From positions 64,001 through 128,000 of the IMG/VR virus record IMGVR_UViG_3300021255_002065: a stretch of DNA of 64,000 nucleotides, one strand, 5' to 3'. This document shows, piece after piece, positions 12,467 through 62,473 of this stretch. The stretch comes from a virus. Lineage: Duplodnaviria; Caudoviricetes. A model generated the notes under the pieces. That model was not told the DNA's origin. It made no database searches and saw only the letters and a list, made by a program, of their open reading frames with translations. Position 1 is the first letter of the stretch. Each line of letters starts with the position of its first letter. Made by a program: the position numbers and the translations under genes.

Positions 12467-12482
12467 TCAGTATTACAACAAT

Positions 12483-12504
12483 ATCCCCCACATATGTGGG
12501 GGAT
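12483..12504. terminator. Perfect palindrome hairpin
   Basis: ATCCCCCACATATGTGGGGGAT. Confidence 0.6.
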
Positions 12505-12525
12505 GACTTTATGGAGGTTTTTATC

Positions 12526-13119: not shown

Positions 13120-13129
13120 TCACACAATG

Positions 13130-13157
13130 AACAACCGGGGCATATGCCCCGGTTGTT
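13130..13157. terminator. Bidirectional terminator, 28-bp perfect palindrome
   Basis: AACAACCGGGGCATATGCCCCGGTTGTT between convergent genes. Confidence 0.8.
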
Positions 13158-13168
13158 TTTCTTGTGTA

Positions 13169-34840: not shown

Positions 34841-37027
34841 TTAGCCGCCTGTACCGGAACCACCAGAAGCTGTTGTTGTTTGAACCAGACCAGCCTTGAT
34901 ATCAGGAACAAGCTTAGTATTCTTACAGATTACCAGACCCTGAATACCTTGGATTGCAATTGTTCTGTACTGAGAAGATGTAGTAACCAGTACAGCCTGA
35001 CCACCAGGATTGTTAATGTCTGCATAACCAGCATTTTCAGGAGAGTTGGTGAGGTGACGTGCAAATCTCAGATGCTTGTAACCAATATGGAATTTATCCA
35101 TCGGATATGCAACAATTCGGAAGAAGTATTCACGAGACTTGTCTGTTGCAGTAGAACCATCCTGATATGCATCAATTGTCATGTATGCATCAATTCTGTT
35201 GGATGCAACAACACGAATCGGAATTTCGGAATCAGTCATAACACCAAATGCATGGTTCATCATAATACCACCGATATTGGTAGACTTAGTTACTGTCCAA
35301 GATACAAACTTCTTGAGAAGTCTGGTAGCCTTCGGGTTTGCATAGATAACAAAGCCAAGGTTTTCCAATTTACCTCTGTCACAGAGTTCATAGATCAGAG
35401 AATTGATTGCATTATGAATTGCATTGGTTCTGTATTCCCAAGGATCTCCAGCAAAGCTGTTGGAAATGGAACAAGGATCCAGATCAACATATTCAGTATG
35501 TGTATAAGAATCCAGTGCATATACATCAGATTCATATCCATCATATTTTGCAAATTCATCTTCCAGGAAGTCCAGAATATACTGGTCTTCGAACATTTCC
35601 TGAGCTGTTACGAGTTCCTGAACCAGTCTGTTGTAGAGGTTGAAGTTGAGAGAAGCATTAGCTTCAGCAAAGTCTTCTACTGTAAACGGAAGCTGGAATC
35701 TCATACCATCGGAAATGAGGAATTTACGAATTTCAGGATATTCACGGAAACCAACAGTTCTCAGGTTGGTTTCATTGGACATTCTACCCTGAATATAGAA
35801 ACCGGTGATCACACCACATGTAGATGCAGTGACATAACCCTTTACAAAGTCAACAATACCTGCGAGGTAGTCGGAGATACCAGTTACAGTCTGTCCAGTC
35901 GGCAGGTTGTTTGCATCAACAATCGGAAGAACCATTTCTTCGGTGATTCTACCGTTCTCGAATACACCACCGTTCTGTACGTCGATTGCAATACCAGCAC
36001 CCGGAAGCTTTACTTTAGAACCACCAGTAACAGTACCGGTTTTCTTGTAATATTTGCCAGCTTCCCATGTAGGAGCAGATGCGCCAGTTACAGCAGTATA
36101 TGTTGTACCAGTAGATGTGTAGTAATCAGTGTACTTTGTAGCCCAATCACTCGGCTGAGAAGTGGTGAGTGCATAAGTATCAATATCAGTGCCTGCAGTA
36201 CCAATCTGCACATACTGGATGTTGAAGTCGTAAGACAGTCTGGCTCTTAGATTGGACTTTCTGTCGATAGAGAAATCATTGCCATCATCATCCAGAAGCC
36301 ATGTGTACATATCAAACTTCTTATTCGGAGAAGCCTGGATCTGGGAAATTAGCAGAGGCGCATTATCCTTGATTCTGTAACCCTTACCTGCATTCCAGAG
36401 TTTCTTCCACAGCGGCTTACCATCTTCATCCTTTACAAACCAGATCTTCGGTGTTTCATATTCTTCACCAGTCTGATTGTTTACCAGATACTTTACGAAG
36501 ATACGCTGTTCGATATTTGTAGAGTTTGCAGTCTGAACAGGAATCAGTTCCTTACCGAGGAATCTTACATACTGCTTTACGAGAGCCGGGAAGTCCAGAG
36601 TTGCAAGCGGTAGATAGTTAGATACGTTATAAGATTCCTGTACCAGGAAGGACTGTGCAGAAGAATCCCACGCTTTATCAATCTGATCGATGACAGATTC
36701 CAGATGTACCTTTTCAGCTTCTACTTCTGTTTCATCTTTCAGAGCTGTCAATTCCTGAATAACCGGTTCAAGCAGCATCTGCTTGTATTCTTCCATGATG
36801 GCAGGATTCTCCATCATTCTCTTTGCGTCCTTCATTACATTGACGCCGTTATATGCTCTTTTCAGTGTTCCAACAGTATTTTCGAAATGTCTATCAAATC
36901 CATCAGACAAGTTGTCAAGTTCTGTCTGAGATGCGGAATTGATCATTGCTTGCTGTTCCTGGAACCATGTGCCATGTGAGGCAGCGGAACGTCCGTATGC
37001 CATAGAAAACATCTCCTTTGGTATCAT
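34841..37027 (-). CDS. Major capsid protein (probable)
   Basis: 728 aa; codon usage typical of high expression (CTG, TTC, AAC); N-terminal propeptide ending FLVQE/S; downstream of the protease and scaffold-like genes; followed by a strong hairpin. Confidence 0.75.
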   Translation of the reverse strand: MIPKEMFSMAYGRSAASHGTWFQEQQAMINSASQTELDNLSDGFDRHFENTVGTLKRAYNGVNVMKDAKRMMENPAIMEEYKQMLLEPVIQELTALKDETEVEAEKVHLESVIDQIDKAWDSSAQSFLVQESYNVSNYLPLATLDFPALVKQYVRFLGKELIPVQTANSTNIEQRIFVKYLVNNQTGEEYETPKIWFVKDEDGKPLWKKLWNAGKGYRIKDNAPLLISQIQASPNKKFDMYTWLLDDDGNDFSIDRKSNLRARLSYDFNIQYVQIGTAGTDIDTYALTTSQPSDWATKYTDYYTSTGTTYTAVTGASAPTWEAGKYYKKTGTVTGGSKVKLPGAGIAIDVQNGGVFENGRITEEMVLPIVDANNLPTGQTVTGISDYLAGIVDFVKGYVTASTCGVITGFYIQGRMSNETNLRTVGFREYPEIRKFLISDGMRFQLPFTVEDFAEANASLNFNLYNRLVQELVTAQEMFEDQYILDFLEDEFAKYDGYESDVYALDSYTHTEYVDLDPCSISNSFAGDPWEYRTNAIHNAINSLIYELCDRGKLENLGFVIYANPKATRLLKKFVSWTVTKSTNIGGIMMNHAFGVMTDSEIPIRVVASNRIDAYMTIDAYQDGSTATDKSREYFFRIVAYPMDKFHIGYKHLRFARHLTNSPENAGYADINNPGGQAVLVTTSSQYRTIAIQGIQGLVICKNTKLVPDIKAGLVQTTTASGGSGTGG

Positions 37028-40466: not shown

Positions 40467-41309
40467 TTACACTCCCCTTAAAATAGATAATGCTTCACGA
40501 CGAATATCCGTTGGTAATGGAATCCACATTTTTGTCATGTCTTGTTGTTCCACAACAATGTTACCGTCTTTAATTCCCATGATTTCATCATTGGAAATTT
40601 GGAATGATTCACAAACAACCTTTAGTGTTTCAGATTGATCATGACAATAATCCGCAAGATCTTTGAGGAATAGTGTTTCTGTTGCGGCTTCCATATACTT
40701 TGCTTCAATATCCGCATCCGCACCCACATGAGATGGGAAGTCAACCATATCCCATGTGATTACCTTTGTGACTCTCATGTTCGGTTGATTACGTGGTGCA
40801 TTCGGAATCATATTTCCCAACAAACGTACGGAGAATGAGGGTACGATTCCCAAATCAATGACTTCAGAAGATGCACAGATTCCGGCCTTTGTGCCGGGAT
40901 GTGTTGTAATTCTTCCTTTGTACTTGGAACCCTCCAAACGGGGATGTGAAATAAAGTGCGAGGAATTCAATGGTTCAGGAATCGTCATACGAATATCCGA
41001 ATATTGTTGTCCTTTGATATCTGGATTGGGGTGATTGAGTTCACCTCTCCATTTATTCTGCTTCAATAATGTTTGGATTCTTTCATCATTATCAATGACA
41101 GAACAAACATTGTGTGCATCATATCTTCTACCCATTCGATTATAACAATCAAATGTTTGTAGTGTTGCTTCAAAGATACAGAAAGGCTGTCCAGTTGTTG
41201 CTTTTTTCACAATATAACCACCTTTCTCCATTTCAGAAGATTGTGGTGATTCTTGAATAAAACATGCTGTATTATATTTAGAAGAAGCACTTTGTGTAGA
41301 TTTTCTCAT
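40467..41309 (-). CDS. Prohead core protease (T4 gp21-like)
   Basis: N..GRRY, GELNHP (His), FSVR (Ser) and WDMVDFPSH motifs. Confidence 0.85.
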   Translation of the reverse strand: MRKSTQSASSKYNTACFIQESPQSSEMEKGGYIVKKATTGQPFCIFEATLQTFDCYNRMGRRYDAHNVCSVIDNDERIQTLLKQNKWRGELNHPNPDIKGQQYSDIRMTIPEPLNSSHFISHPRLEGSKYKGRITTHPGTKAGICASSEVIDLGIVPSFSVRLLGNMIPNAPRNQPNMRVTKVITWDMVDFPSHVGADADIEAKYMEAATETLFLKDLADYCHDQSETLKVVCESFQISNDEIMGIKDGNIVVEQQDMTKMWIPLPTDIRREALSILRGV

Positions 41310-46025: not shown

Positions 46026-46508
46026 TTAATTAGATACTTGATATTTTCGGAGATATAATCGATTTAGTTTGTCATATGTGATACCAATAATCACTTCTGG
46101 TATTTCTGTATTTGCAGTAATGTAATCAGAACCTTTAATGACAACGCGTAACTCATTGCAAGATTGATATGTTTTATTGATATAGACTTCGATTTCAATC
46201 CCAGTTAATTCTAATCGATTACATTGATCATAGATTGCATTTTTTATCTTTGTCGGAATCGTATTATCATCAGAATATTCAAATAAATATTGTTCGATAT
46301 CAATTCCCAATTCAGGTATACTTGGATATTGACCCGGTTTCATCATCAGTAATGTGACAATGACATTACAACACATTTCAAATGTGGAAATGATTTTTGG
46401 TTTATGAAATTCATCAATATCCATGAGTGCATCATATCCAAGTAACTGAACTGTGGAAGGATATCTAGCATTGACTTCCGCCAAAGTGATTCCTTTTGTA
46501 TCAAGCAT
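46026..46508 (-). CDS. gp25-like baseplate wedge protein
   Basis: LLMMKPGQYPSIPELGIDIEQYLFE matches the gp25-type L.T..GE....P.FG......LFE pattern. Confidence 0.65.
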   Translation of the reverse strand: MLDTKGITLAEVNARYPSTVQLLGYDALMDIDEFHKPKIISTFEMCCNVIVTLLMMKPGQYPSIPELGIDIEQYLFEYSDDNTIPTKIKNAIYDQCNRLELTGIEIEVYINKTYQSCNELRVVIKGSDYITANTEIPEVIIGITYDKLNRLYLRKYQVSN

Positions 46509-48855
46509 CTACATCATCTTCCTCAAGATCTTTCTTACCAAATAACTTGTGGCGTTTCTTCTTCGGTTTGAATTCTGGTTCATCATGATTTGATGTCATC
46601 TCACCATCATCTCTGCCTTTTCCATTTGTGAGAGCAGATTCTGTTTGTTCCAAACAACCAAGATATGTTTCCATGGTATTCATGACATATTTACCAAGAT
46701 CATCGATGGAATCAATCATTTCGACAAATGCATTACATGTATGCTGTACAGATGTATTCAGTTCTGCCAAACCCTTTTCTGTATCAGAAGCAATACTAAT
46801 ATTTCCTTCCTTCACAGCATTTTCCAATCCAGTAATCTTTTCCAAACCCTTTTCCAGTTTCTTTGTTTTCTCTGTCAATTTGGATGCGAGTTCTTCATAG
46901 AAATCAGCAATCTTAACAGCACCGGATTTCGCATTAAAGATAATACCAAGATTCAATTTACCATCCGGCATGTATGTTTCTTCCATCTGTTTGATCTTGG
47001 ATAGATATCCGGATACACAGGATTCATCTCCACTGCGCACACCAAGTGCAACACCTTCTGCAATATCAGCCCAATCATCGATATCGTCCATCATCTTGGA
47101 AATACCATTCATGTTTACGAGACCTTCCATGGTGATTTTATTTTGATTCATGGTAAGTACAGGCTTTGCATTTTTACCCATCTCTGGAGTTACCTTAGCA
47201 ACCTTATCTTTCCCTTGCTGGATGGCTGCACGAATTTTTTCGGGAGATTCTTCAATGGCTTCAGCCAATCTGGAAGTTAATGCACGAAGCATCGTATCTC
47301 GACCAAGTTCTTCTACTAATTTAGCACCTTCAGAAGCAATAAAGTCTGTTGGCTTCAAAGGTAACGGTTCGCCTTTCGCAATACTTGCAAGTGCGGCAGT
47401 TGCATAACCCGCACCACCAGCTAATGCCATCTTTGGCATATTTCTTGCTCTCTTTCTGATCTTTGCAATTTCACGATTGATCTTGACTTCAATACCGATT
47501 AACAAGCCTTTGTATGCAATAAAGGATTTGGTTTTGTGATAAAGCGTTTGTACAAGATTCTTGATGACCAGGAATGGCCAAGCAACAAGCTTGTATAATA
47601 CACCGCCCTTTTTCAAATCCTTGCTGGTACGATGTACAACGTTGCGAATGATTCCTTTACGAGGAACACCGTTCTTGAAATCGAGAATACGTTTTGCACC
47701 TTTTGCAACAGGCTTTACCAAACCAGAAGCGGTTTTGCCTGTACCACCGAAGAATCTTTCCTGTACGACTTCTTCACCATCTGCAATGGTTTCTTCATCA
47801 GATTCTACGACAACATCTTCACCATAGAAATCAGATAACATATATTCCTTATACAGATCATCAATCATGGATGTCATGATCTGACGTTCTGTTTTCAATT
47901 GATCTTCGGAAATCTGGTTAAAATAAGATTCCAATGCATATTCTTTTACAGTGTCATCATGTTCTATCATTCCAGGCTTGGGGGAATAGGAGGAAGACAC
48001 TTCTTCTTGTGTTAATGCAAGTCTTGCTTCTCTGATTTTTGCAGCTTTGTCTGCACCAGACATATTAGCTGAAGACTGCAACTTGCGAGCAGCATCTTCA
48101 CGTTGCTGTTTCATCTTTGCAAGTTCCGGATCATCGATATCCGCTTTCTTCTTTTTCTTAAAGACATCAAAGAAACCTTCTTCATCGAAATCTACATCTT
48201 CATCGGAGTCATCATCGGAAACACCTTTTTTCTTGGATGATTTCTTTTTGGATTTCTTGTCACACTCGTCATCATCACACTCATCGTCATCGCATTCTTT
48301 ATCATCACATTCATCATTATCCGAATCGAAATCATCATCTGTATCATCGTCTAAGTCAACATCTGTATCTGTTTTCTTAGATTTCTTTTTCTTGGATTTC
48401 TTTTTGGGTTTTTCATCGATGTCTTTGTCGAATTCATCGACATCATCGTCATCATCACATTCACCGTCTTCACATTCTTCTTCATCATCATCGAATTCAA
48501 GATCGGTATCTTGCTTCTTAGATTTTTTCGGTGTTGCTGCTTCGGTTGTTGTGTCGATATCGGATGAACTGGAATCATCATTTCCACCATCATCCATATC
48601 TCCAGCTGTATCATTTGCTGTAGTATCCGCAGATTCTCTTCCAAATCCAACTTTAGTGCCACAACCATCTCCACATTCTTCTACATCATCGACAACATCT
48701 CTTCTTTTGGATTTCTTTGCAGATTCTGTTCCGAATGTAATGCTCTTTCCATCTTTTGAACCACAACCATTACCACATTCCTTGAATTCATCAATCTCTT
48801 CATTGTTGGATTCTTGGAAGATGCTCTCATCATAATCTCTTCTTAAACGACTCAT
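46501..48855 (-). CDS. Internal head/core protein with long acidic, Lys-rich N-terminal region
   Basis: D/E tracts with ECDD repeats alternate with KKSKKK blocks; internal propeptide-like TERQIMTSMIDDLYKEYMLSDF; IFQE/S, YALE/S and VVVE/S sites. Confidence 0.55.
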   Translation of the reverse strand: MSRLRRDYDESIFQESNNEEIDEFKECGNGCGSKDGKSITFGTESAKKSKRRDVVDDVEECGDGCGTKVGFGRESADTTANDTAGDMDDGGNDDSSSSDIDTTTEAATPKKSKKQDTDLEFDDDEEECEDGECDDDDDVDEFDKDIDEKPKKKSKKKKSKKTDTDVDLDDDTDDDFDSDNDECDDKECDDDECDDDECDKKSKKKSSKKKGVSDDDSDEDVDFDEEGFFDVFKKKKKADIDDPELAKMKQQREDAARKLQSSANMSGADKAAKIREARLALTQEEVSSSYSPKPGMIEHDDTVKEYALESYFNQISEDQLKTERQIMTSMIDDLYKEYMLSDFYGEDVVVESDEETIADGEEVVQERFFGGTGKTASGLVKPVAKGAKRILDFKNGVPRKGIIRNVVHRTSKDLKKGGVLYKLVAWPFLVIKNLVQTLYHKTKSFIAYKGLLIGIEVKINREIAKIRKRARNMPKMALAGGAGYATAALASIAKGEPLPLKPTDFIASEGAKLVEELGRDTMLRALTSRLAEAIEESPEKIRAAIQQGKDKVAKVTPEMGKNAKPVLTMNQNKITMEGLVNMNGISKMMDDIDDWADIAEGVALGVRSGDESCVSGYLSKIKQMEETYMPDGKLNLGIIFNAKSGAVKIADFYEELASKLTEKTKKLEKGLEKITGLENAVKEGNISIASDTEKGLAELNTSVQHTCNAFVEMIDSIDDLGKYVMNTMETYLGCLEQTESALTNGKGRDDGEMTSNHDEPEFKPKKKRHKLFGKKDLEEDDVDA

Positions 48856-50615: not shown

Positions 50616-50647
50616 ATATGAAAAAATAAAATAATAGAGACAGATGA

Positions 50648-50667
50648 GGTGGGCCAATTGGCCCACC
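50648..50667. terminator. Perfect palindrome hairpin
   Basis: GGTGGGCCAATTGGCCCACC between divergent units. Confidence 0.5.
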
Positions 50668-50740: not shown

Positions 50741-53700
50741 ATGCAATTAAATGAGATAAAGTATGATGCGAAAAATAATGAGCCAAAACGTGAATTTGCA
50801 TTCAGTCAAGAATTCCCGAATGAGATTGAATTGGCATTAAAAGCATTTGATCGCGTCTTTAAAGAATTGACATCCATCTCCAATGGGAAGATCGAATTCT
50901 CCGAAGAATATGGTGTTGTCAATAACTTGTACAAGTTCCGTTATATTACACCATCTGATGTTGCAACTTACACTTCTAATCTAATTAAGGTATTGAAGAA
51001 TCACATGATCTGTCCGCATGTGACAGATTTACAGAAGTTTTCTGTTGTATGTGCAAAGCAATACGTGGAAGACCATGGCTGTGTTCCAATTGAACATTCT
51101 TCCATCTATGGTTTGTACAATTACACCACTGACAATATGACGCTACGAGATTTGTTGGTTCTTTGTGAAAATGACTTCTATCATACCACGGTTGTTTCTA
51201 GATTTGAAATGCAAGAACGTGTGAAAGTGATGAAGGAAGATTATAAAAAGATTGCCGACATGCATTTCAATACCAATATCATGAAGATTGTGGATGGTTT
51301 ACCGAAACTCATCACACAAACTGATTTCTTGGAATTAACTTATGTGGAACAGAAAGCAGTTCAAACATTCATTGAAGAATTCATTCTGTTTACGATTATG
51401 CTGAATACAATCATCATGAGTAACATGATCTTCTTCTGTGTTCCAAAATCCACATATGATACAAAATTCATTGAAAAGAAAGAGCACGTGGATTCCAACA
51501 CATTATTGGATGATGCCGATATGGACGATGGTGGATTGTATACGGAAGCAGTTGACACATCGAAATATAAACCTGTATACATTGTTCTGATGAGTGGAAA
51601 CGGTGCCATATCAAAAGCGGTACAGAAAACCACACTCAGTTCCATATCACATGCTGGAATTTCATTTGATTCTTCCATGAATCGAATTTATTCATTCGGC
51701 ATGTTCAATAAGAATCGTACCGAAGACGCTCCACGTAAAAATGGATTCCGTATTGATTCTTTCTTTACGGAAAATCACAAAGATGTCACCATGAGTGTAT
51801 ATGCCGGATACATGTCAAATGAAAATTATAACAAAATGAAATCTTTTGTGGAAGATAATTATGTCGGTGATAAAAAGACGGATTATTCATTGGGAACAAT
51901 CTGGAAGCAGTTGTGGCATTCTGACAAAGAATCTCGAAAACCGAAAGACATGGCATTTGTATGTTCCACATTTGTCGATCGTGTATTAAAAGAAGCTGGC
52001 GTAAATGTTACTGGAAAGCACCTACCATCCCCACAAGACTTCGACAGAAGTATGGCAAATGACATGGTGCATTTCGAACGTGTGTTCAATGGAAAACCCG
52101 AACACTTCGATGAACAAGATATGCTGGATCGTGTGAAGAACTTTGCAAAATATAAGAAAACCAGCAACGCAGATGCTGTGGTAACAGAAGCTGTCGATAC
52201 ATCGAAAACAAAACCGATTTATGTGGTATTGACAGAGGGTGTGGAATTTGTATCCGACCAAGTAAAACGTCACACGCGTTCTCGTTATTCCCATTCCGGT
52301 TTGTCATTTGATGATTCCTTGCATCATGTTTATTCATTTGGCTTAATGAATCCCGTGAATAAAGACACAATTGTTCGAAATGGTTTCCGTATGGATGATA
52401 TGTTCTCCGACCATCACAAGGGTATTCGATTCACTGTCTTTGTTGCATTTGTTTCCAATGATAAATGGAATACGATGAAGAAATATGCAGACCATGTGAA
52501 AAATAGTCCTAAGTCTAAATACTCACTTGGTATTATTTGGAGACAATTGTGGAATGATGAAAAACCACATAAGAGTGATACCGCACCTGATCATGAACTA
52601 AAAGAAGTTTGTTCCACCTTTGTCAATAGTATTCTGAAATCTGCGGATATTGATTTGACGAAAAAGGTACTTCCAGCACCTGCTGATTTTGAAGCAAACA
52701 TGCTTGTGAGAATGAATCAATTCAGTCAAGTGTTCTCTGGCACATCTGATCAATTCAAGATGGATGAATTCCGTTCTCGTGTAAAAGACTTTGCAAAACG
52801 TGAAGAAACCAAGAAACTTGCAAAAGGTGATGTCATTACAGAATGCTGCTTATTAAAGACCAATCGTTCTCGTCACTTCAACAAGATTCCTTTTGATATC
52901 AATATGAGAAATATTGTATTGCAAGATATGCATCCAAAGTTCAAAGATACGGTTGCAGCAATTGAATATATTACAAAAGACACACGTTCCCCATTTGCAC
53001 AACTCATTTATCGTTATGGCAGTCCTTCCAAGGTATTAGATGGAATGGATGGTATGATGATTTGTCGTATGTTTATCAACGATCCATGTGCAAGATGCGG
53101 ATGTTATGATGAATATGAAAATCAATTACATCAAGCCGACTTCCATACGGATGTATGTTGGTTAGATCGTATTGCGTTTGGTAACAATTTCCAAGATGGT
53201 AATTACAGAACCGATGCATTAGGATTGGAACATCGTCATCCGATTAAACAAACATTGGAAACGTTGTATCACATGTTCAGTGAAACAAGACTGAAAACGA
53301 AAGAAGAATTGTGTAATCACATTCTCAAGATTGCACATGTGATGAAAGGCATCATTGACTGTTATGGAAGTAACGGATTATACAATTGGGAACTGGTACG
53401 TGATATCTTGACTGTATTGGGTGAAATCATGACAAGAAGCATGATCAAACTATATGACAGACATATGGCTTTGGTTGTATCTGATAACATGGATGATGTG
53501 GATGCTCCTGGATATATGTATACAGAAGCATTTGTATTGGAAGCAGATGAACATGAACCAAAGGTTGTGGAAACTGGTAATGACGGAAAACCAACTGGCG
53601 GTGGTGGAAATGGTCAAGTGACATCTGCACAAGCTGAACAAAAGAAAAGCTGGTGCAAACGGATGCTTGATGAATTCACCAAATGGGTACAAGGTACCTT

Positions 53701-54700
53701 GACGAAAGTTGCTGAAAAATTCAAAGGTAATTATAAAGCACAAGTGGGTTATGTTGCTGCAAATAAGACAATGAATGAACAGATCAAAACAGATTTGGGA
53801 AATGGTTCATTCAAACCAAAAGTTGAAGATTGGCCGAAGTATAATATTCCCATCAAAGAGATTGGACAGAAGAAATTATCCGAGGTCATCAAACCTTGGT
53901 TGGATGGTACGGCAAAAGAACCGCTTACAGCACTTAGTGTGAAGAAAGCATTCTATCCAGAAGCAGTTGCAGCTGTTATTACAGAATCTTATGTATTGGA
54001 ATCTGGTCAAACAACACAAATTCAAGCACCACAAGGACAACCCGCAAATGTTGGAAAGGCAGCACTTGCGGCAAAAAATGTGAAAGCAAATTTAAATGCA
54101 GCATTACAATCCAAAATAGATGCTCCAAAGAAGTTTGAACCAGACAGCGAAAATGGTAAGAAATTACAAAATTTCTTCTTGTTTGGTAAACCGGATGCAT
54201 CCAATGCTAACTATTCCAATGAATTAACTCCGGAATTATGGCAAGATACCATTAATAATATTCTGAATTGCGACAAAGCAGTTTCCGTTGGTATCAAAGA
54301 AATTACTGCTGATATCAAATCCACAAGTGATGAATTGAAATCGAAATTGGCTGCCTTAAAAGAAGCAAATGCAAACGCCGGTGAAGCACAAGGTGATGCT
54401 GCAAATGCAAATAACACGGGTAATGCAGATATTACTCGCTTGGAAGATCTGATTAAAATTGTTACCGAAATTTCAAATGAATATAGTATTGGATTTGCTC
54501 ACAGTATGCAAGATGCATTCTTTGTGACTTCTTACAAATTATATTCCGATATTATCAAAAAATACAAAGATGCTTCTGGTAGCTTCGAGCAGCAACAACC
54601 AAATGCCAATGCACAACCGGCACAAAAACCAGCATCTGCAAACGCAGCACCAGCAGCTCCTGCTCAGCCGGCCGCAAATGCACAAGCTCAACCCGCATAA
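50741..54700 (+). CDS. Virion polyprotein with two permuted papain-like (NlpC/P60, YiiX/YaeF-type) domains
   Basis: Two repeats starting TEAVDTSK.KP.Y.VL with SH[AS]G[IL]SFD...YSLG...CSTFV...P.P.DF (His before Cys); C-terminal amphipathic helix region. Confidence 0.75.
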   Translation: MQLNEIKYDAKNNEPKREFAFSQEFPNEIELALKAFDRVFKELTSISNGKIEFSEEYGVVNNLYKFRYITPSDVATYTSNLIKVLKNHMICPHVTDLQKFSVVCAKQYVEDHGCVPIEHSSIYGLYNYTTDNMTLRDLLVLCENDFYHTTVVSRFEMQERVKVMKEDYKKIADMHFNTNIMKIVDGLPKLITQTDFLELTYVEQKAVQTFIEEFILFTIMLNTIIMSNMIFFCVPKSTYDTKFIEKKEHVDSNTLLDDADMDDGGLYTEAVDTSKYKPVYIVLMSGNGAISKAVQKTTLSSISHAGISFDSSMNRIYSFGMFNKNRTEDAPRKNGFRIDSFFTENHKDVTMSVYAGYMSNENYNKMKSFVEDNYVGDKKTDYSLGTIWKQLWHSDKESRKPKDMAFVCSTFVDRVLKEAGVNVTGKHLPSPQDFDRSMANDMVHFERVFNGKPEHFDEQDMLDRVKNFAKYKKTSNADAVVTEAVDTSKTKPIYVVLTEGVEFVSDQVKRHTRSRYSHSGLSFDDSLHHVYSFGLMNPVNKDTIVRNGFRMDDMFSDHHKGIRFTVFVAFVSNDKWNTMKKYADHVKNSPKSKYSLGIIWRQLWNDEKPHKSDTAPDHELKEVCSTFVNSILKSADIDLTKKVLPAPADFEANMLVRMNQFSQVFSGTSDQFKMDEFRSRVKDFAKREETKKLAKGDVITECCLLKTNRSRHFNKIPFDINMRNIVLQDMHPKFKDTVAAIEYITKDTRSPFAQLIYRYGSPSKVLDGMDGMMICRMFINDPCARCGCYDEYENQLHQADFHTDVCWLDRIAFGNNFQDGNYRTDALGLEHRHPIKQTLETLYHMFSETRLKTKEELCNHILKIAHVMKGIIDCYGSNGLYNWELVRDILTVLGEIMTRSMIKLYDRHMALVVSDNMDDVDAPGYMYTEAFVLEADEHEPKVVETGNDGKPTGGGGNGQVTSAQAEQKKSWCKRMLDEFTKWVQGTLTKVAEKFKGNYKAQVGYVAANKTMNEQIKTDLGNGSFKPKVEDWPKYNIPIKEIGQKKLSEVIKPWLDGTAKEPLTALSVKKAFYPEAVAAVITESYVLESGQTTQIQAPQGQPANVGKAALAAKNVKANLNAALQSKIDAPKKFEPDSENGKKLQNFFLFGKPDASNANYSNELTPELWQDTINNILNCDKAVSVGIKEITADIKSTSDELKSKLAALKEANANAGEAQGDAANANNTGNADITRLEDLIKIVTEISNEYSIGFAHSMQDAFFVTSYKLYSDIIKKYKDASGSFEQQQPNANAQPAQKPASANAAPAAPAQPAANAQAQPA

Positions 54701-54721
54701 TGAATGAAAGGAGAATTCTCC

Positions 54722-56914
54722 ATGTTGAAATATCAAAAGGAGATTGTCAACATTCCCGAATTTAATCAACATGCAAAACAGAAAGTAGAAGAAATCATAT
54801 CCGGTTCGCCGGATATGATTACTGCTTTGGAATGCGTTGGTGCCATGTATGGTATTCCACCCACACATTTCACTGTTGAGCCAGAGATTAAAACATTACG
54901 AATTGTTGATGATCATGTTATGACACCACCAGATGTTCGTCCGAATACAAAAGCAATCGTATGTAGTATTGGTGGTGTATTAGATCATATCTCACAGAGA
55001 GTCAATGATAAATTAGACGAATGCCATGATGCAGAAACGAATGAAGGAAGATTACATCCTCATGTTTCTCAAAATGCAAATCCCAATAAAGGAGAAGTCA
55101 TCGAACGTCATGTAGATGCAAATGGTGACGAAATTCTCGTATATGATTCTGGATTGATGGATCTTCCCAATACAAAAGAAGGACATCTAAAAGCAGATGA
55201 ATTACGTGAAAAGAATAAAATACCAGAATTCAAACAAGATGAATTTAATAAGAAAAAGGATGATTACTTCAAAAAAGAAGATGCGATTGAATTAGAATTC
55301 ATGGCAAATATTGATTTGGATTTGGCATGTGATAATGAACCACGTCCAACTGATATGGCAAAACTCATTCAAGAAAATGCATTTCATTTGGATTTGATTT
55401 CCCATTATCATGATACGGATTATCTTGGTTATGAACTGTTACAAGAACAGGGATTTGATTATGTAAAACCAACAGAATCCTTTGCTTTGGAAGCGGGTGT
55501 GGAAAATGAGAAACCCAAGGTCAATCCAGAAGATATCAAACATATGAAGTTTGACAATACCCATATTACAAATGCAATCAAGTGTTTCAATATGGCACGT
55601 GACGAACAAGCCGACAAAGAAAAAGGTATGTTTGATTTGGATCGATTCACATCTTCTCAACATTACAAGCGTGGCATCAATGAATTGGAGAAACAGTTTG
55701 ATTGTAAACTCAGTGTGCATTTCAAAGATAATGTAAAAGAAGCAGATAAAACCAATCTGTTCACATTAGTATTCGATCACCAGCATTCTGATAAGATTTA
55801 TGTATCCAAATCCAAAGGTTTCCAATTAAATGGATTACCCATCACAATTGTTTGTGTAAATAATGCAATCGACGAAGAGATGACAAAGAATGCAGATAAG
55901 GATCTATTTGGTCAATTCATGTGTGCTTCCTTGTGTCATGAGATATTCCATAATGTTGTAAATGCCATCAGATGTAAAACGAACATGTTTATTTATACAT
56001 CTACAAGTGCAATGGCAATGGCTTTAAATACAACAGATGCTGGTACACGTCGAGAGATCTTTTCTAAGTTTGCAGATACCGTTGTAATCCAAGGCAAGAA
56101 TCTGAATGATATGGAAAAGAAGAAACTAATCAAAAAGCTTTGTTACATTTCTGCATTGTCTGATAACCAACAGGAATTGACGAAGATCCAGAATGCATTG
56201 GATCATTCTAATTCCATCAGTGATGCAGATCAACAAGTGGATGCATTGATTGCTCGATATGAAAAAGCAATTGCACAATATCAGAAGAAGATTCCACATG
56301 CTACCAAGAAAGGGAATAAATACATCAATAATCCAAGTGGTTATAAAATCTTAAATAAGATTGCAACTGGATTAAGTTGTTCCATCATCGGTGCTCCGAT
56401 TGGATTACCGATGTTAAAGCTATTACCAAACAGAAGTGATGCGGCATTGGCACAAGCATATGCGGATTATCTGAATCATACCAACAAAGAAGAATACTAT
56501 TGTGACATGTTTGCTGGCATGTATAATCTTCCATTATCATTCACCTATGGCTATACCAAACGTGACTTTGCAGCAAATGATATTTCCGATGATCGTTTGA
56601 AGTATTTACAAGATTTGGAAAAGCAACTCCGTCAGTTTACCTTATCACCATATCCGACAAATAGTGAGCGGAACTATGCAGCTTACCAAATTGCAAAAAC
56701 CATTCTGAGTGGAAAAGAAAAGATTTCACCCGAGGTAAAACGGTATTGTGAATGGATTGTCAATAACTATTCCAAGATTAGCAGTGCAAATGTGGAAAAT
56801 AATTATAACAAGACAACATTTGATCCAAAAGAAGCGCATGACTTAGATGAACATGTACAGAATTTAATTCTGAATAATAGCATTCCTGTGACGGAATCAT
56901 ATCGAATGAATTGA
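54722..56914 (+). CDS. Probable virion zinc metalloprotease
   Basis: LCHEIFHN (HExxH), EEYYCDMFA third-ligand motif, YP...ER; FALE/A and LIQE/N sites. Confidence 0.7.
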   Translation: MLKYQKEIVNIPEFNQHAKQKVEEIISGSPDMITALECVGAMYGIPPTHFTVEPEIKTLRIVDDHVMTPPDVRPNTKAIVCSIGGVLDHISQRVNDKLDECHDAETNEGRLHPHVSQNANPNKGEVIERHVDANGDEILVYDSGLMDLPNTKEGHLKADELREKNKIPEFKQDEFNKKKDDYFKKEDAIELEFMANIDLDLACDNEPRPTDMAKLIQENAFHLDLISHYHDTDYLGYELLQEQGFDYVKPTESFALEAGVENEKPKVNPEDIKHMKFDNTHITNAIKCFNMARDEQADKEKGMFDLDRFTSSQHYKRGINELEKQFDCKLSVHFKDNVKEADKTNLFTLVFDHQHSDKIYVSKSKGFQLNGLPITIVCVNNAIDEEMTKNADKDLFGQFMCASLCHEIFHNVVNAIRCKTNMFIYTSTSAMAMALNTTDAGTRREIFSKFADTVVIQGKNLNDMEKKKLIKKLCYISALSDNQQELTKIQNALDHSNSISDADQQVDALIARYEKAIAQYQKKIPHATKKGNKYINNPSGYKILNKIATGLSCSIIGAPIGLPMLKLLPNRSDAALAQAYADYLNHTNKEEYYCDMFAGMYNLPLSFTYGYTKRDFAANDISDDRLKYLQDLEKQLRQFTLSPYPTNSERNYAAYQIAKTILSGKEKISPEVKRYCEWIVNNYSKISSANVENNYNKTTFDPKEAHDLDEHVQNLILNNSIPVTESYRMN

Positions 56915-56924
56915 GGTGACAAAT

Positions 56925-58622
56925 ATGACATTGAATGATTATATTCTCGATCAAGTAATGGAAGCAAAAGAAAATGAGTTGGAAACAACACAAAAGGTGT
57001 TAGAATATCTTGTGACAGAAAGTATGAAAGAATGGGAATATCTTGATCACTGTATTACCTATCACAAAGATCCAACACTCGTTCAAGAGTCATTTTTAAA
57101 GAAAATACACACAGGTGTGAAAGATACTGCGGGAGGCATCCGCAGTATCATCACAAGACTTCGTGCATTGACTCGTCGAAATCTTGTGGTATTGAAAACA
57201 TTGTTTTCACATGTAAAAGATGTTACAGAAGGATTCAGGGGTAAATTCCGCAAGAGTGGTGCTAAGAAAAGCGCGTCTCAAATTGCACATGAAAATCTTC
57301 GTAAGAAATTGGATCCTGAGAAGAAGATGGCAGAATCACAAGCACGTGTAAAAGTACCATATGAAGGAGACATCAAACAAGATGAGATTGAATTAATTAA
57401 TTCCGCAATCTTAATTAAAGAATTTGATGATGATAACAATTTCGAAGTGGATTTGATGGGTGTAAACTATGTGAAGAATGATCGTGGTAAAGTAAGAGCT
57501 GTTTCTGATAAAGGAGAAGGAGTTCCTTCATTGGCATCTCTATTCGTTTATACAAACTCCATGATTTACTTCATCAAACATCCAAATGAAATGGAAACAT
57601 TATGTGAATTGATTACTCTGGGATTCAAGATCACAAATGGTGAACAAGAAATTGCACCAGCAGAATATGCCAAGAAAGTTAATAAATTGACCAGTGCTGC
57701 ATTCAATAAAGCAAATGGTATTGCTGCTGGTGGTACAAGATTAACCATGAAAGAACTAACGACATTCCAATCCAAATTGAACAATTTGGAAGAACAATTG
57801 GACTTTGCGCAAAATGGTAATAACAAATTGAATGATGTGGATACAAGTGTCATTCAAGCTTTGAATAATTTGGTTCACATTACAGAACATTTTCAGTTTG
57901 GATTGTCTTCCTTATCAAATGCAATGCAAAAAGTACATCTGATTGATTTGAAATACATGAACTCTATCACTGACAGAAATGTGTTGTCAAAGTTTGTATA
58001 TGATTGCATTCAGAATGGTATTCCACCCAAGTATATCGCATACAATACATGGTTAATCGCAAATGAAAGCATTCGTGGAAGTGCATCCAGATACAAACCC
58101 GTCGGTGGTCAAACACGTTGTGTATTCTTCCCGAATGACAATAAAAAGGAAATTCTTAAAATTGCCACATCTGGTATTGGTATCACATCTAATAAGAATG
58201 AAATTCGTTTCTCAGAATTCTTAAAACGTTCCAAGGAACAAGAGATGATTGATATTTCCGCACTTGTTACAAATACTTATGCCGAAGATGCCATATTGGC
58301 AATGGAACGTGTTGTCGATAGAGTTGGAAAACATCCTGACTTACAGATTCTGAATGACATGAAATCAAAATATAAAGCATTTACTGATCGACATCCTGAA
58401 TTGAGATTGGTTGTTTCCGACTTTAATGATGGCAATGTCATGTGGTCGAGTGATAAAGATCGATGGATCTGTATCGACTATGGTCTTGGTAAACGTAATA
58501 CGCAGAAACAAGAAGTTGTTGACAAGAAGGCAAATAAAGCCATCAAGCAATATCATAAACAGAACGAAACAAATGATGATGGAGGAGAACCAAAGTCATT
58601 GAAAAATGTTGCAGAAGAATAA
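56925..58622 (+). CDS. Propeptide-bearing protein with C-terminal protein-kinase-like domain
   Basis: GGQTRCVF, LKIA, NKNE, MERV, DFNDGN, IDYG; N-terminal leader ending LVQE/S. Confidence 0.75.
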   Translation: MTLNDYILDQVMEAKENELETTQKVLEYLVTESMKEWEYLDHCITYHKDPTLVQESFLKKIHTGVKDTAGGIRSIITRLRALTRRNLVVLKTLFSHVKDVTEGFRGKFRKSGAKKSASQIAHENLRKKLDPEKKMAESQARVKVPYEGDIKQDEIELINSAILIKEFDDDNNFEVDLMGVNYVKNDRGKVRAVSDKGEGVPSLASLFVYTNSMIYFIKHPNEMETLCELITLGFKITNGEQEIAPAEYAKKVNKLTSAAFNKANGIAAGGTRLTMKELTTFQSKLNNLEEQLDFAQNGNNKLNDVDTSVIQALNNLVHITEHFQFGLSSLSNAMQKVHLIDLKYMNSITDRNVLSKFVYDCIQNGIPPKYIAYNTWLIANESIRGSASRYKPVGGQTRCVFFPNDNKKEILKIATSGIGITSNKNEIRFSEFLKRSKEQEMIDISALVTNTYAEDAILAMERVVDRVGKHPDLQILNDMKSKYKAFTDRHPELRLVVSDFNDGNVMWSSDKDRWICIDYGLGKRNTQKQEVVDKKANKAIKQYHKQNETNDDGGEPKSLKNVAEE

Positions 58623-58633
58623 GAGGTGATACT

Positions 58634-60247
58634 ATGGAAGAATTAGAATATTTCTGGGAGTGTATGGTGGAATCCAAACAGAATGTGTTTGATGCAATCG
58701 TTGCAGAAAATGAAAAGGAACATATGTTGGTGGAACAATATCTGATGAAACAAGCAGAAGGTAGAATCACATTGGAAAGTTCTGATATGGGAATTCGTCT
58801 ATGGCAATTACTTAAGAAAACGAGTAAAGCCACAAGTGGTATTGCCGATCATGCAGTCAACTTGTTAAAGGGTATTTTCCATGTAAAAAATGGAAGTAAA
58901 AAACCAACAAAAACTCCAAATGCAATTGCACAACAAGTTGTACCAAGTTCCAAACTTCCAAAAGCACAACAGGAAGTGGAGAAGAATTTGAAAACTCCAT
59001 TCAAAGGAAAAGAGAATGTGGTATTAAGTGCAACTCCTATTTTTATTAAGGAAATTACACAAGATGAAGGGTTATACATCGGATTATTCGGTGTTAACTA
59101 TATCAAGAACGAAAAGGGACAGTTGGAACATGTTTCCAACTCCCATGGTATCAAGGGATTGGAAGACAATACCATCATCTACAAGAACATGGTGTATTAT
59201 ATCAAACATCCAGAAGCATTTGAAAATCTTGCAAGGATTGTGGAACAAGCCGGTGATTTGGTAGATGGTGGAAATGTTGACCAAGCAAAGCTTCGTGAAG
59301 CCATCAAAAAGACGGTTGCGAAGAGCCATGCTCCCGGTCGTGAATTCAATGCTGGTGGTACGAAATTAACCATGAAGGAATTGACAACATTCGCTGCTAA
59401 AGTGAATCAGTTAACAAATGCAATGGACAAATTCCAGAATGGTAATAATCACTTGAATGGATTTGATTCTGAAACAATTACGGCAATGAACCAATTGGTT
59501 CGTGAATTGGAAACTTGTCAACATGGTATCAATGGTTTGGCAAATGAGGTTGGTAAGCTGTACATGATCAAAGCACAATATGTGAACTCTATCACGGATA
59601 AAAATGACTTGGCAAAGTTTGTGGAAATGTGTATTGATGCTGGTGTACCACCAAAGTTTGTTGCATACAATACATGGCTGATTGCAAATGAAGAAATCCG
59701 TGGTGATAAAGTAGACTTTAATAAAGTGCCAATGGGACAAACCAGAATGGTGCTCTTCCCGAAGGATAAAAAGATCATCACCAAGATTGCGTTTAGTGGT
59801 CGTGGATTAACTTCTAACAAGAACGAAGTAAGAATGAGTGAATTTATCCAGCGGAGTAAAGAAGAGGATATGATCAAGATTGCTGCTCCGATTGTTGGAA
59901 AATATGGTAAAGACTGTGCAGTTATTGATATGGAACGTGTTGTCGATAAAGTTGGGAAACACCCCAATCCAAAAATGTTAAATCAGGTAAAGGGGCAGTT
60001 CATAGACTTTGTACAACGTCATCCTGAATTGAGATTGGTGGTTACCGACTTTAATGATGGAAATATCATGTGGTCGAGCGATCGTGATTGTTGGGTATGT
60101 ATTGACTATGGCTGTGGTCAACGTGATAACATTTCTGAAGAGAAACTGCAACAACGTGCTGAGAAGAAACAAGCGGCATACAAAACTCGCACTGGTAAAG
60201 ATAAAATATTAGATGTTACGGTAGGTGATGATAATGACAACGATTGA
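58634..60247 (+). CDS. Paralogous propeptide-bearing protein-kinase-like protein
   Basis: MGQTRMVL, TKIA, NKNE, MERV, DFNDGN, IDYG; leader ending ITLE/S. Confidence 0.75.
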   Translation: MEELEYFWECMVESKQNVFDAIVAENEKEHMLVEQYLMKQAEGRITLESSDMGIRLWQLLKKTSKATSGIADHAVNLLKGIFHVKNGSKKPTKTPNAIAQQVVPSSKLPKAQQEVEKNLKTPFKGKENVVLSATPIFIKEITQDEGLYIGLFGVNYIKNEKGQLEHVSNSHGIKGLEDNTIIYKNMVYYIKHPEAFENLARIVEQAGDLVDGGNVDQAKLREAIKKTVAKSHAPGREFNAGGTKLTMKELTTFAAKVNQLTNAMDKFQNGNNHLNGFDSETITAMNQLVRELETCQHGINGLANEVGKLYMIKAQYVNSITDKNDLAKFVEMCIDAGVPPKFVAYNTWLIANEEIRGDKVDFNKVPMGQTRMVLFPKDKKIITKIAFSGRGLTSNKNEVRMSEFIQRSKEEDMIKIAAPIVGKYGKDCAVIDMERVVDKVGKHPNPKMLNQVKGQFIDFVQRHPELRLVVTDFNDGNIMWSSDRDCWVCIDYGCGQRDNISEEKLQQRAEKKQAAYKTRTGKDKILDVTVGDDNDND

Positions 60248-61472
60248 TGAAATTGTACAAGAACAAGAGATGTCCACAGTTATTGCATTATTGGAATATT
60301 ATCAAAAACAACTGGACTTATCCGATTATGAAACGGACGTGTATGTGGAGCACGTCCGTAATATTGGTATGACAACTCCTTCCGAAAAAGCCAGAGAAGA
60401 ACAGGAGAAAGAAGAAGTAACAAATACTTCAAACAAGAAAGAATCTGTTGATGATAAACAAAGTCTTGGTACTAAAATCAAATCGGGAATTTCCAAATTG
60501 ATCAATATGATTATCAATGGATTTAAAAAGATTATTTCAAAGATAATGTCGATTGGAAAATCGGAAACAAAAGTCACAGATATGATTGTGAACAATCCAG
60601 ACGCTTGTAAAGAAGCTGGCGATAAATTACAACAGATAGCAAAGTCAAAGGTGACGCAGGAAGCCGCAACATTAACAGACGTTATCGCTCATAATAGATT
60701 TAAAGATCTCAATAAATTAAGCCCTGCTGAAAAAGCCGATCTCGTCCGTTATTATGATAAACAGCAAGCTGCCAAGAAAGCAGCAGAAGATGCAGCAAAA
60801 GATGCAGCTGAGCGAAAAGAAGCGATATCTGATGCAGTGAATTCAATAAAGAAATTTGTTCCATTTGGTTTATTAAGAAATATTGGTATTGGTGCAGTGA
60901 TTGCATTATGTGCAACTTTATTCATTCTGCTTTATAAAAGGAAAACCAATTATCAATTACCAAGTGTAACAGATATTGGTCGTTCTTGTGTAGAGCTGAA
61001 TTCACAATTACAAAAGTCCATGAATGGAAATGGACTCAAAAATGTCACAATCAATCCAAAAACAAAGGACTACATGACACGTGTTGCAAACTGGAATAAG
61101 AGATATACTAAGAATGAACCAGAATTTGAATCAAAGCATTCCGAATTCGAATTGACCAGAGAACAAGAAAAAATATTTGTTGATGCAGTTTATCTTGCAG
61201 CATCTGCAAAGAATGATCGATTCATCGGTGTGCTACAAGATTCTATTGGGTTATTAAAACAATTCAATGCTGTCATTAAAAAGAGTAATGGGATTGTGGT
61301 AAACCATTTGGTTGATGTTTCCAAACAATATGCAAATTTCATCATTGGAATTAATAAAGCAATCACAGTAGGTTCTGATCTAATCAAAAATATGGGATTA
61401 TCCTTACAACAAATTCGAGGATACCAAAATCAGAAAGAACGTGATTACAAACCTTCGAAAGCAATTATTTAA
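60234..61472 (+). CDS. Putative internal head protein, propeptide family, with a transmembrane-like helix
   Basis: QEMSTVIALLEYYQKQLDLSDY; amphipathic helix; IGIGAVIALCATLFILLY. Confidence 0.6.
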   Translation: MTTIDEIVQEQEMSTVIALLEYYQKQLDLSDYETDVYVEHVRNIGMTTPSEKAREEQEKEEVTNTSNKKESVDDKQSLGTKIKSGISKLINMIINGFKKIISKIMSIGKSETKVTDMIVNNPDACKEAGDKLQQIAKSKVTQEAATLTDVIAHNRFKDLNKLSPAEKADLVRYYDKQQAAKKAAEDAAKDAAERKEAISDAVNSIKKFVPFGLLRNIGIGAVIALCATLFILLYKRKTNYQLPSVTDIGRSCVELNSQLQKSMNGNGLKNVTINPKTKDYMTRVANWNKRYTKNEPEFESKHSEFELTREQEKIFVDAVYLAASAKNDRFIGVLQDSIGLLKQFNAVIKKSNGIVVNHLVDVSKQYANFIIGINKAITVGSDLIKNMGLSLQQIRGYQNQKERDYKPSKAII

Positions 61473-61486
61473 GGAAGTGATAATCA

Positions 61487-62473
61487 ATGATTGATATTGA
61501 GCAAGTAGTAATGGAATCAGAAATTGATGTATTATTGGAACAAACTTGTTTATTACAAAAAGAATCCATGTTATCAGATTATTATGTTGAAGCTGATGAA
61601 GTTACTGCCAATGATGAATCACCAAAGAATGACAATATCTTGAAAAAGATATGGGGTGGAATTGTTAGGATTATCCAGGCAATTGGCAATTGGTTTAAAA
61701 AGTTCTTTGATCGTTTCAAGAAGAAACGAAGCGATGGAAACTTTACACCGAAATATATCAAACTAGATGAGAATGGGAATTTCAAATATTGCATGTTTCC
61801 AAAATACAATGTAACTGATTCTACATTACCAGAACATCAACAAATCGAGAGTCAATTCCATTTACTATTGTCCTTTCTGTTTGAAGATGTCATGACATTC
61901 AATTATACAAAACATAAATTGTTTGATAATTTCTTAACTGCATTAGAGATGTATAAGAAGAATCATGAAAAACACGTGAAAGAAATCGCTGGTAAAAAAT
62001 TGAATATGACCAATCCAATTGGTAAAGAACGTGATTTGATTAAGAGATACACCAAACATATCTCAAAAGATTTCAAAATGGCAGGAAACTATCAAGCTGG
62101 TAATGAGAAACTGAACAAATGGGGAAATTATGCAATCAACCAAGGTGCGGAACATGCCATGATTGAAATCAAGAGTTTGGATGAAATCAAATTGGCTGAT
62201 CAACATATCATGGGTGCAATTAATGAAGCAAATGCTTGTTATAATGATTTAAGAAGTGCTCTGGGAATGGGTGAAAATCAAGCACGACCTCAACATTACC
62301 TGTTATCCAAAGATATTGCAAATGATGTATTACAAGTATTAAATAAGATGCTTGAATATATCAAAGACTTGACAAAGATGTATGAAATGACACTTGGTCA
62401 AGTTCGTATTGATTTAATCAACATGATCGAATATCAGAAACATCATAAACAAAACAAGAAAACTCAAAAATGA
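61487..62473 (+). CDS. Putative internal head protein, propeptide family
   Basis: ESEIDVLLEQTCLLQKESMLSDYYVE/A; NILKKIWGGIVRIIQAIGNWFKKFF. Confidence 0.6.
   Translation: MIDIEQVVMESEIDVLLEQTCLLQKESMLSDYYVEADEVTANDESPKNDNILKKIWGGIVRIIQAIGNWFKKFFDRFKKKRSDGNFTPKYIKLDENGNFKYCMFPKYNVTDSTLPEHQQIESQFHLLLSFLFEDVMTFNYTKHKLFDNFLTALEMYKKNHEKHVKEIAGKKLNMTNPIGKERDLIKRYTKHISKDFKMAGNYQAGNEKLNKWGNYAINQGAEHAMIEIKSLDEIKLADQHIMGAINEANACYNDLRSALGMGENQARPQHYLLSKDIANDVLQVLNKMLEYIKDLTKMYEMTLGQVRIDLINMIEYQKHHKQNKKTQK

Follow-up and report, generated by a model that had tools for sequence, protein, structure and literature searches.

Phage T4 loads Alt and the internal proteins IPI-III into its prohead by means of an N-terminal targeting sequence, which the prohead protease trims after a Glu; injected with the DNA, these proteins act on host proteins at once. 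To our knowledge, the phage kinases characterised as disarming host defences are, without exception, synthesised in the infected cell first. T7 kinase (T7K) disarms defences by promiscuous phosphorylation, its DNA-binding domain steering it to nucleic-acid-binding defence proteins (PMC13645617). From computational analysis, Iyer, Burroughs, Anand, de Souza and Aravind predicted kinases devoid of the C-terminal subdomain in DNA-injected phage polyvalent proteins (Iyer et al. 2017; PMC5512222). Here we describe K1 and K2, two adjoining plus-strand open reading frames (ORFs) of an uncultured jumbo phage (IMG/VR record IMGVR_UViG_3300021255_002065), whose predicted products join a very small protein-kinase-like domain to an N-terminal module resembling that of phiKZ-type proteins of the capsid interior. 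The window analysed comprises 64,000 nt (positions 64,001 to 128,000 of the 148-kb record), and coordinates refer to this window unless the record is named.

Two tandem paralogs of a metagenomic protein family

K1 (56925..58622, + strand) encodes 565 aa arranged as leader, basic segment, middle domain, minimal kinase domain and a tail rich in Lys and Glu; K2 (58634..60247, + strand), its 537-aa paralog, has the same architecture. A preliminary description of the locus had recognised tandem paralogs and placed the K1 start at 56925, which the ORFs, the ribosome-binding site and the similarity of the two products bear out. A GAGGTG Shine-Dalgarno sequence precedes the ATG at 56925, and this start was preferred over the GTG at 56916 because the latter forms part of the GAGGTG site itself; in alignments, K1 homologs begin at the same Met. 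BLASTP aligned ~535 residues of K1 and K2 at 40% identity (E 4e-127), with all catalytic motifs paired.

Some 52 kb before the window begins, the 148-kb record encodes a third full-length paralog of 550 aa (11765-13417, +). It possesses the same leader, an IQE/A junction (here and below, the slash marks the putative cut), the basic segment and the kinase residues (profile match E 7e-71), and its C-terminus lies 6 residues past the DYG motif. A complete 294.5-kb relative likewise contains exactly three K copies.

Close homologs of K1 amount to 39 metagenomic proteins with 30-98% identity, on contigs of up to 267 kb. Among 1.84 billion representatives, the K family as a whole comprises at least 275 clusters (50% identity), 256 of them at E<=1e-10, and nearly all are ~500 aa long and share the layout described above. 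No member proved to be characterised or cultured, and none was named or carried an NCBI or UniRef accession. The sole PHROG match of K1 is phrog_4301, a family of unknown function that was matched by 59 of 81 K-family members. Relatives in cultured phages were absent from 50,697 phage records (megablast of the locus; tblastn of K1 and three divergent relatives), prophage copies were absent from a scan of 185,579 bacterial genomes, and neither phmmer of K1 nor the close-family profile retrieved anything meaningful from PDB sequences.

A match of K2 to Exo_endo_phos_2 (E 0.007; 16.7 bits vs. a cut-off of 27.4) was attributed to chance, and the relatives of 167-308 aa were not taken as free-standing forms of the family, since most of them are truncated proteins from short contigs and cluster with full-length members. 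Phage kinases that are small, stand alone and have a similar fold nevertheless exist, e.g. in Klebsiella phage RaK2 and Ralstonia phage RP12.

A minimal kinase-like domain with conserved catalytic residues

Residue conservation and structure modelling establish, as far as computation can, that the C-terminal domains of K1 and K2 adopt a protein-kinase-like (PKL) fold with an intact catalytic centre. In K1, the domain (57933..58505, +) contains Lys412, Glu426, Asp499, Asn504 and Asp518 (565-aa numbering); in K2 (59561..60133, +), motif positions together with the alignment to K1 and the family place the equivalent residues at Lys385, Glu398, Asp472, Asn477 and Asp491. The kinase motifs listed in the preliminary description were all recovered in both proteins, in K1 as GQTR (58107-58118), the Lys of LKIA (58161-58163), NKNE (58191-58202), MERV (58302-58313), DFNDGN (58419-58436) and IDYG (58473-58484), and in K2 as their equivalents at 59735-59746, 59786-59788, 59816-59827, 59930-59941, 60047-60064 and 60101-60112, respectively, all on the + strand.

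The minimal kinase fold itself, also proposed there, was upheld by independent structural searches. The last 229 residues of K1, modelled with 135 aligned relatives, yielded a structure with a pLDDT of 92.4 and a pTM of 0.82, for which Foldseek returned 91 PDB matches at E<=1e-3; all of the matches listed were kinases. The best of these (probability 1.00) were Rio2 (3e-5), OspG, CK2, APH(2''), NleH2, Src and IRAK4. Even for the mediocre model of full-length K1 (pLDDT 65.5), Foldseek still ranked Rio2, RIOK3, OspG, NleH and Bud32 first. VIA, a wide search independent of Foldseek that covered 48,161 representative chains, placed kinase-like folds in all of its top 50 positions (Z 8.6-6.5). Its best match was APH(2'') (Z 8.6, rmsd 3.8, 144 aligned), and ULK4, YabT, Rv3197, Rio2, Bud32, Rio1, YihE and Ark1 were among the others, down to Z 6.5. 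Here, the case for a kinase fold is made from the uniformly kinase-like composition of the list and not from the absolute Z. Searching BFVD retrieved small phage proteins (from RaK2 and, annotated as 'protein kinase domain-containing', from RP12) as well as giant-virus and herpesvirus kinases.

Sequence profiles pointed to the same superfamily. In comparison with PDB sequences, the stretch of the family profile from the catalytic loop to DFG aligned with dozens of kinases (E 0.01-0.5), among them YopO and the PknB proteins of staphylococci and mycobacteria. PF03109 (ABC1/UbiB) was weakly matched by 2 of 81 relatives, and the relative P0146 passes the ABC1 cut-off (23.6 vs. 22.9 bits) over the catalytic-loop-to-DFG stretch only. 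In the Atlas, the nearest named cluster is that of an OspG family effector kinase; a cluster with an 11% share of PF27024, also among the nearest named ones, is regarded as a lead only.

Across the 135 relatives, whose pairwise identity is mostly <50%, four positions are invariant (the G and R of the GQ[ST]R motif, the beta-3 Lys and the Asp of DYG), and conservation reaches 90% or more at the helix-C Glu and at the catalytic Asp, Asn, Tyr and Gly. Conservation over such divergence argues against a chance origin of the motifs. Their predicted placement also follows the kinase fold: in the pLDDT 92 model, Lys412 resides on a strand and Glu426 on the next long helix, with DFNDGN and IDYG, spaced by 14 residues, located between helix E and strands 7/8. 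Preserved in the domain are the Lys-Glu pair that binds ATP, the catalytic Asp-x4-Asn and the Asp that binds metal.

Departures from canonical kinases

Of the marks of canonical Ser/Thr/Tyr kinases, K1 and K2 display neither a Pfam Pkinase match nor GxGxxG, HRD or an activation loop with APE. The 'Gly loop' of the preliminary description was thus correct as to the presence of GQTR, of which the G and R are invariant, and inaccurate in its name, as the family-wide form GQ[ST]R replaces the canonical pattern. The catalytic loop, D-x-H/N-x-x-N, is that of atypical kinases and T7 gp0.7 and has no Lys at +2. Most K-family proteins stop 4-10 residues past DYG and hence lack the activation loop as well as helices F to I. 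K1 and K2 continue with one extra helix, which is rich in Lys and Glu and poorly conserved.

Ahead of the N-lobe lie two helices that are well conserved and contain near-invariant Pro, Lys and Asn residues. As a conjecture, these helices, or else the middle domain, may take the place of the absent C-lobe. The substrate class cannot be read from the fold, because the best structural matches mix protein, aminoglycoside, ABC1-type and RNA kinases.

An acidic leader that ends in a putative cleavage motif

The preliminary description had further noted a leader, an xxE/S site and a basic helix, an arrangement that we found conserved across 134 full-length relatives. In K1, the acidic leader (56925..57089, +) spans residues 1-55, bears a net charge of -9 and ends in LVQE/S; in K2 (58634..58777, +), it spans residues 1-48 and ends in ITLE/S, with the Glu invariant in an alignment of 29 sequences. 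Among the 134 relatives, the junction combines I/V/L/M at P4 and Y/F/I/L/V at P3 with Glu (107/134) or Asp (11/134) at P1 and Ala, Ser or Gly at P1' (106/134). The leader is otherwise variable in sequence, with medians of 43 residues in length and -9 in net charge (negative in 99% of members), and is followed by 50 residues of opposite charge (median +8.5, positive in 98%). The sequence evidence thus supports the leader as a genuine module that recurs and terminates in a Glu cleavage motif.

The basic amphipathic segment of K1 (57090..57329, +), with a charge of +8 over its first 50 residues, leads into KSASQI, and a K-S/T-x-D-Q-I motif is conserved downstream of the basic segment in the family. 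Next comes the middle domain (57330..57932, +), for which the full-length model, of low-to-moderate confidence here, suggests beta strands and then a helical bundle, and the Atlas provides weak leads. The 'helical middle' noted previously accordingly captures the helices and misses the strands. A second cleavage site after Glu137 of K1 (AE/S) is not claimed, as it is conserved solely in the close K1 subfamily and not family-wide.

When applied to the same genome, a hidden Markov model (HMM) of the leader detected the third paralog, a 328-aa protein and an internal site in a 784-aa protein. The 328-aa protein (61487-62473, +) has the same acidic leader (HMM E 3e-4) without a kinase domain, and its basic helix weakly matches positions 100-129 of PF12699. 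Between it and K2, a 415-aa protein (60225-61472, +), also without a kinase domain, begins with a leader that looks similar by eye and was missed by the HMM. The 784-aa protein (46501-48855, -) is encoded in the head/tail gene block, and its leader-like segment (residues ~311-352, VVVE/S, HMM E 3e-4) may be an internal processing module or fused cargo.

A prohead protease and weak similarity to capsid-interior proteins

The presumed processing enzyme is encoded at 40467..41309 (-): a match to PF20034 (Peptidase_S80; E 4.1e-8, 33.1 bits vs. a cut-off of 23.4) identifies the product as a phiKZ gp175-type prohead protease (MEROPS/Pfam S80). Of four related viral records, three likewise encode an S80 protease. 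Proteases of the S80 group and T4 gp21 cleave after Glu (PMC5694885).

The part of the K family that contains the cut site and basic helix showed weak similarity to proteins that chimalliviruses carry in the capsid interior. In PDB sequences, the family profile matched the Goslar capsid-interior protein gp65 over this region with an E of 2e-5, and the corresponding hhalign comparison (E 0.0014, 71 columns) spanned VQE/G and the basic helix. A second deposited gp65 chain starts 133 residues in, ~ten residues beyond the VQE/G junction. Against phiKZ gp92-97, hhalign gave an E of 0.004 and a probability of 8.5% over 48 columns; phiKZ gp86 was discarded as a relative, since hhalign showed no real match (E 0.23). 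PF12699, the family of phiKZ internal head proteins, was matched by 13 of 81 members at E<=1 (best 1.1e-4, all sub-threshold), with the next family reaching 2 of 81. Neither K1 nor K2 reached the Pfam threshold for PF12699, and none of ten single relatives scanned for it matched at E<=0.05. We take these weak matches to capsid-interior proteins as support for packaging, not as proof. Elsewhere in the window, a giant ORF of 3458 aa (13169-23545, -) matches PF12699 weakly and below the cut-off (E 0.0015).

Gene neighbourhood and domain fusions

K1 and K2 belong to a six-gene unit (50741..62473, +) with gaps or overlaps of 1-23 nt between genes. It diverges from a block in which the major head protein (34841-37027, -) and the protease are encoded. 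Relatives at 63-67% identity retain the gene order (large polyprotein, 736-aa protein, K, K), and one relative has three consecutive K genes.

In several relatives, the K module is part of a larger protein. P0183 (1494 aa) combines it with an N-terminal GNAT acetyltransferase and a transglutaminase-like domain, P0131 (1400 aa) with C-terminal PoNe-immunity (PoNi) domains, and P0146 (932 aa) with a 330-residue N-terminal extension. The fusions to GNAT/transglutaminase-like and PoNi domains, which occur in distant relatives, are in keeping with injected effectors of the 'polyvalent protein' type.

The two genes upstream of K1, conserved with it, encode a 1341-aa protein (50741-54700, +), whose sole match is phrog_1128 over residues 292-445, and a 736-aa protein (54704-56914, +) with an HExxH motif (HEIFH) and no Pfam match. 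For the first gene of the unit, ATG 50741, preceded by AAGGAG, is a more likely start than 50675. Just before this gene, at 50647-50666 (+) and after a very AT-rich intergenic stretch, lies a perfect 8-bp stem with a 4-nt loop, GGTGGGCC AATT GGCCCACC. Farther away, an HNH endonuclease gene at 5357-6544 (-; phrog_59, E 1e-41) among opposite-strand genes may represent a homing endonuclease insertion.

Possible routes and roles of the K proteins

From the computed fold, catalytic residues, leader motif, protease gene and gene context, we infer packaging, cleavage, ejection, timing and substrate as follows. The K proteins would be made alongside the head proteins and loaded into the prohead, where the S80 protease would cut them after the conserved Glu and thereby remove the acidic leader. 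This removal would unmask the basic segment, which would associate with the packed DNA. Stored with the DNA, the enzymes would exit together with the genome at infection and serve as ready-made, ATP-dependent phosphotransferases, acting on host proteins, possibly DNA-associated or defence proteins, before phage gene expression. For this sequence of five steps as a whole, we see roughly equal chances of its being right or wrong. The preliminary description had envisaged kinases that would be made late, packaged and delivered, and the computed fold, leader and S80 protease support this view in part. Its parts differ in strength: the K proteins are probably packed into the capsid, and they may be delivered with the DNA. 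Packaging is favoured by the leader junction, the acidic/basic charge pattern, the S80 protease and the occurrence of the leader on other proteins of the genome, and likewise by the gp65 and PF12699 matches, the conserved operon beside head genes and the fusions resembling cargo polyproteins. By analogy, the basic segment beside the kinase recalls the steering of T7K by its DNA-binding domain. A bolder and more specific version, which we put forward only tentatively, would make the K family capsid-stored kinases that are masked by a propeptide until the protease cuts, tethered to the genome by the basic segment, injected, and phosphorylating host DNA-associated or defence proteins before phage expression, with the most reduced competent kinase cores known, devoid of a C-lobe.

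Several observations count against delivery of an active kinase. Members of the K family are exclusively metagenomic and the proposal is a computational one; K1 and K2 match no Pfam family at E<=0.1, the chance match of K2 being set aside. The VIA Z values, up to 8.6, are middling by the tool's own scale, kinases of small molecules and RNA (APH, Ark1, ABC1) figure among the closest structural matches, and without a C-lobe a substrate-binding surface is not recognisable. At the junction, P3 is hydrophobic, whereas it is Ser, Ala or Gly in phiKZ and Ala in SPN3US. None of the links to PF12699, gp65 and the phiKZ internal proteins reaches threshold (hhalign E 0.0014-0.004, probabilities 9-17%), and PF12699 matches weakly in control genomes, too. 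Goslar gp65 is a fixed, vertex-binding capsid protein, so that the shared module might signify that the K proteins are retained and not ejected. Finally, sigma-70-type promoters are as numerous in the operon as expected from shuffled sequence and are uninformative on the timing of expression.

These points bear on four other explanations, two of which concern where the K proteins reside. They might be packaged and processed, yet act or stay in the prohead or capsid, phosphorylating head or inner proteins of the phage or serving as enzyme-bearing interior anchors. The only solved structure that matches the N-terminal module is indeed Goslar gp65, found in a vertex-binding complex on the inner capsid wall, and the packaged Goslar proteins gp208 and gp209 are not injected. 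However, the ATP supply in a sealed capsid is doubtful, PF12699 proteins are mostly injected, phiKZ gp86 and its relatives were formerly regarded as ejection proteins, and three diverging paralogs per genome along with GNAT and PoNi fusions look more like conflict effectors than assembly factors; on balance, we consider retention unlikely. Alternatively, the K proteins could be cytoplasmic phage kinases that are never packaged, the N-terminal helices forming a regulatory or oligomerising coiled coil and the proximity to head genes being incidental. Virion association is deduced indirectly, all similarity to head proteins falls below curated thresholds, and the known phage kinases T7K and JSS1_004 are non-virion proteins. 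Yet a Glu-Ala/Ser/Gly junction that ends a poorly conserved leader throughout a 134-member family is hard to explain without proteolysis; moreover, unrelated neighbouring proteins have the leader in common, the S80 protease co-occurs, and the operon with a multi-enzyme polyprotein is conserved, which renders a purely cytoplasmic existence distinctly improbable.

The remaining two concern the reaction catalysed. Whether packaged or not, the K domain might act on a non-protein substrate, such as a small molecule, a lipid, a sugar or an RNA end, or perform another nucleotide-dependent reaction. Aminoglycoside phosphotransferases, ABC1/UbiB-type proteins (Rv3197, MSMEG_1954), YihE and the RNA kinase Ark1 are among the top structural matches, the weak Pfam matches of members are to ABC1 and choline kinase and not to Pkinase, and the D-x-H/N-x-x-N loop comes without the Lys at +2 or HRD, in a domain with neither an activation loop nor a peptide-binding C-lobe. 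Equally good matches, however, are protein kinases with a minimal C-lobe (Rio2, OspG, NleH, Bud32, CK2), the nearest named Atlas cluster is the OspG family effector kinase, the T7 kinase loop has the same D-x-H-x-x-N form, and Iyer et al. placed C-lobe-less phage kinases nearer to protein kinases (PMC5512222). We regard a non-protein substrate as rather unlikely. An inactive pseudokinase with a structural or binding role might be suspected from the missing C-lobe, the non-canonical Gly-rich loop and the missing HRD histidine, but all ATP-binding and phosphotransfer residues are strongly conserved in very divergent members, which is not the pattern of pseudokinases and makes this explanation highly improbable.

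Should the K proteins indeed be injected as active kinases, an enzyme arriving ready-made with the DNA would close the time gap imposed by synthesis, as T4 Alt does for ADP-ribosylation. The cargo of phiKZ-type propeptide/protease loading would then widen from structural and inner-body proteins to signalling enzymes, and the family would show how far the kinase fold can shrink and still function. The K family also lends itself to a clean test of the injected, C-lobe-less kinases predicted in 2017.

Comparison with known systems

The kinases described by Iyer et al. are the closest in concept. Like the K family, they are predicted, computationally in both cases, to enter the host with phage DNA; in both, the C-terminal subdomain is gone entirely and the residues for ATP binding and phosphotransfer remain (PMC5512222), and both are found with peptidases and GNATs. 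Unlike the K family, the Iyer kinases occur in (pro)phages of Bacteroidetes and Verrucomicrobia, as parts of multidomain polyvalent proteins. Their signature residues, a Glu before strand 2 and a Gln in the last N-lobe strand, were not seen conserved in the K family: there is no conserved Glu before strand 2, and 4 of 10 sequences have a Gln ahead of the conserved Glu/Lys. Many K-family members, though not all, have a His 8-9 residues before the catalytic Asp. Marks of the K family's own are GQ[ST]R, the conserved helix pair before the N-lobe and the phiKZ-style propeptide. The two groups, which may or may not belong to one clade, were compared here by published description.

T7 gp0.7 (T7K) belongs to the same superfamily, its D-x-H-x-x-N loop aligns with that of the K family, and in both cases a basic or DNA-binding part lies beside the kinase. 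In contrast to the K proteins as envisaged here, T7K is an early product made after entry rather than virion cargo, and it has a fuller kinase domain. With hhalign, the family profile aligned to gp0.7 over 22 columns at the catalytic loop (E 0.012, probability 3.6%), a match short of significance.

OspG, NleH and the RIO kinases are the best structural matches to the K domain (Foldseek E 3e-5 to 5e-4) and resemble it in their small cores, reduced C-lobes and lack of an activation loop. OspG and NleH are also injected through a narrow channel into a target cell, albeit by a type III secretion system instead of a phage. These kinases keep several C-lobe helices after DFG, whereas most K-family members do not.

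T4 Alt, an ADP-ribosyltransferase and not a kinase, has no sequence relationship to the K family. The T4 targeting sequence measures ~10-20 residues and ends in L/I-x-Glu, the K leader ~43-55 acidic residues, and only the Glu-specific junction is alike.

The N-terminal module finds its nearest counterpart in phiKZ-type proteins of the capsid interior (PF12699 gp93-97; phiKZ gp86/Goslar gp65), which have a propeptide cut after Glu by the S80 protease and then a basic amphipathic helix. Genes for phiKZ-type internal head proteins, like the K genes, lie in operons beside head genes, and many of their products are injected with the DNA. A kinase domain is borne by no known phiKZ-type internal head protein, and relatives of the K kinase domain were found in neither phiKZ nor Goslar.

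The preliminary description had named no characterised virion-delivered phage kinase, and indeed none with experimental characterisation was found in the literature searched. The idea of phage-delivered, C-lobe-less kinases is nevertheless not new, having been predicted by Iyer et al. in 2017 (PMC5512222). What appears to be novel here is the combination, within one large and wholly uncharacterised family, of an extremely reduced kinase core with an N-terminal module of phiKZ-style propeptide and basic helix.

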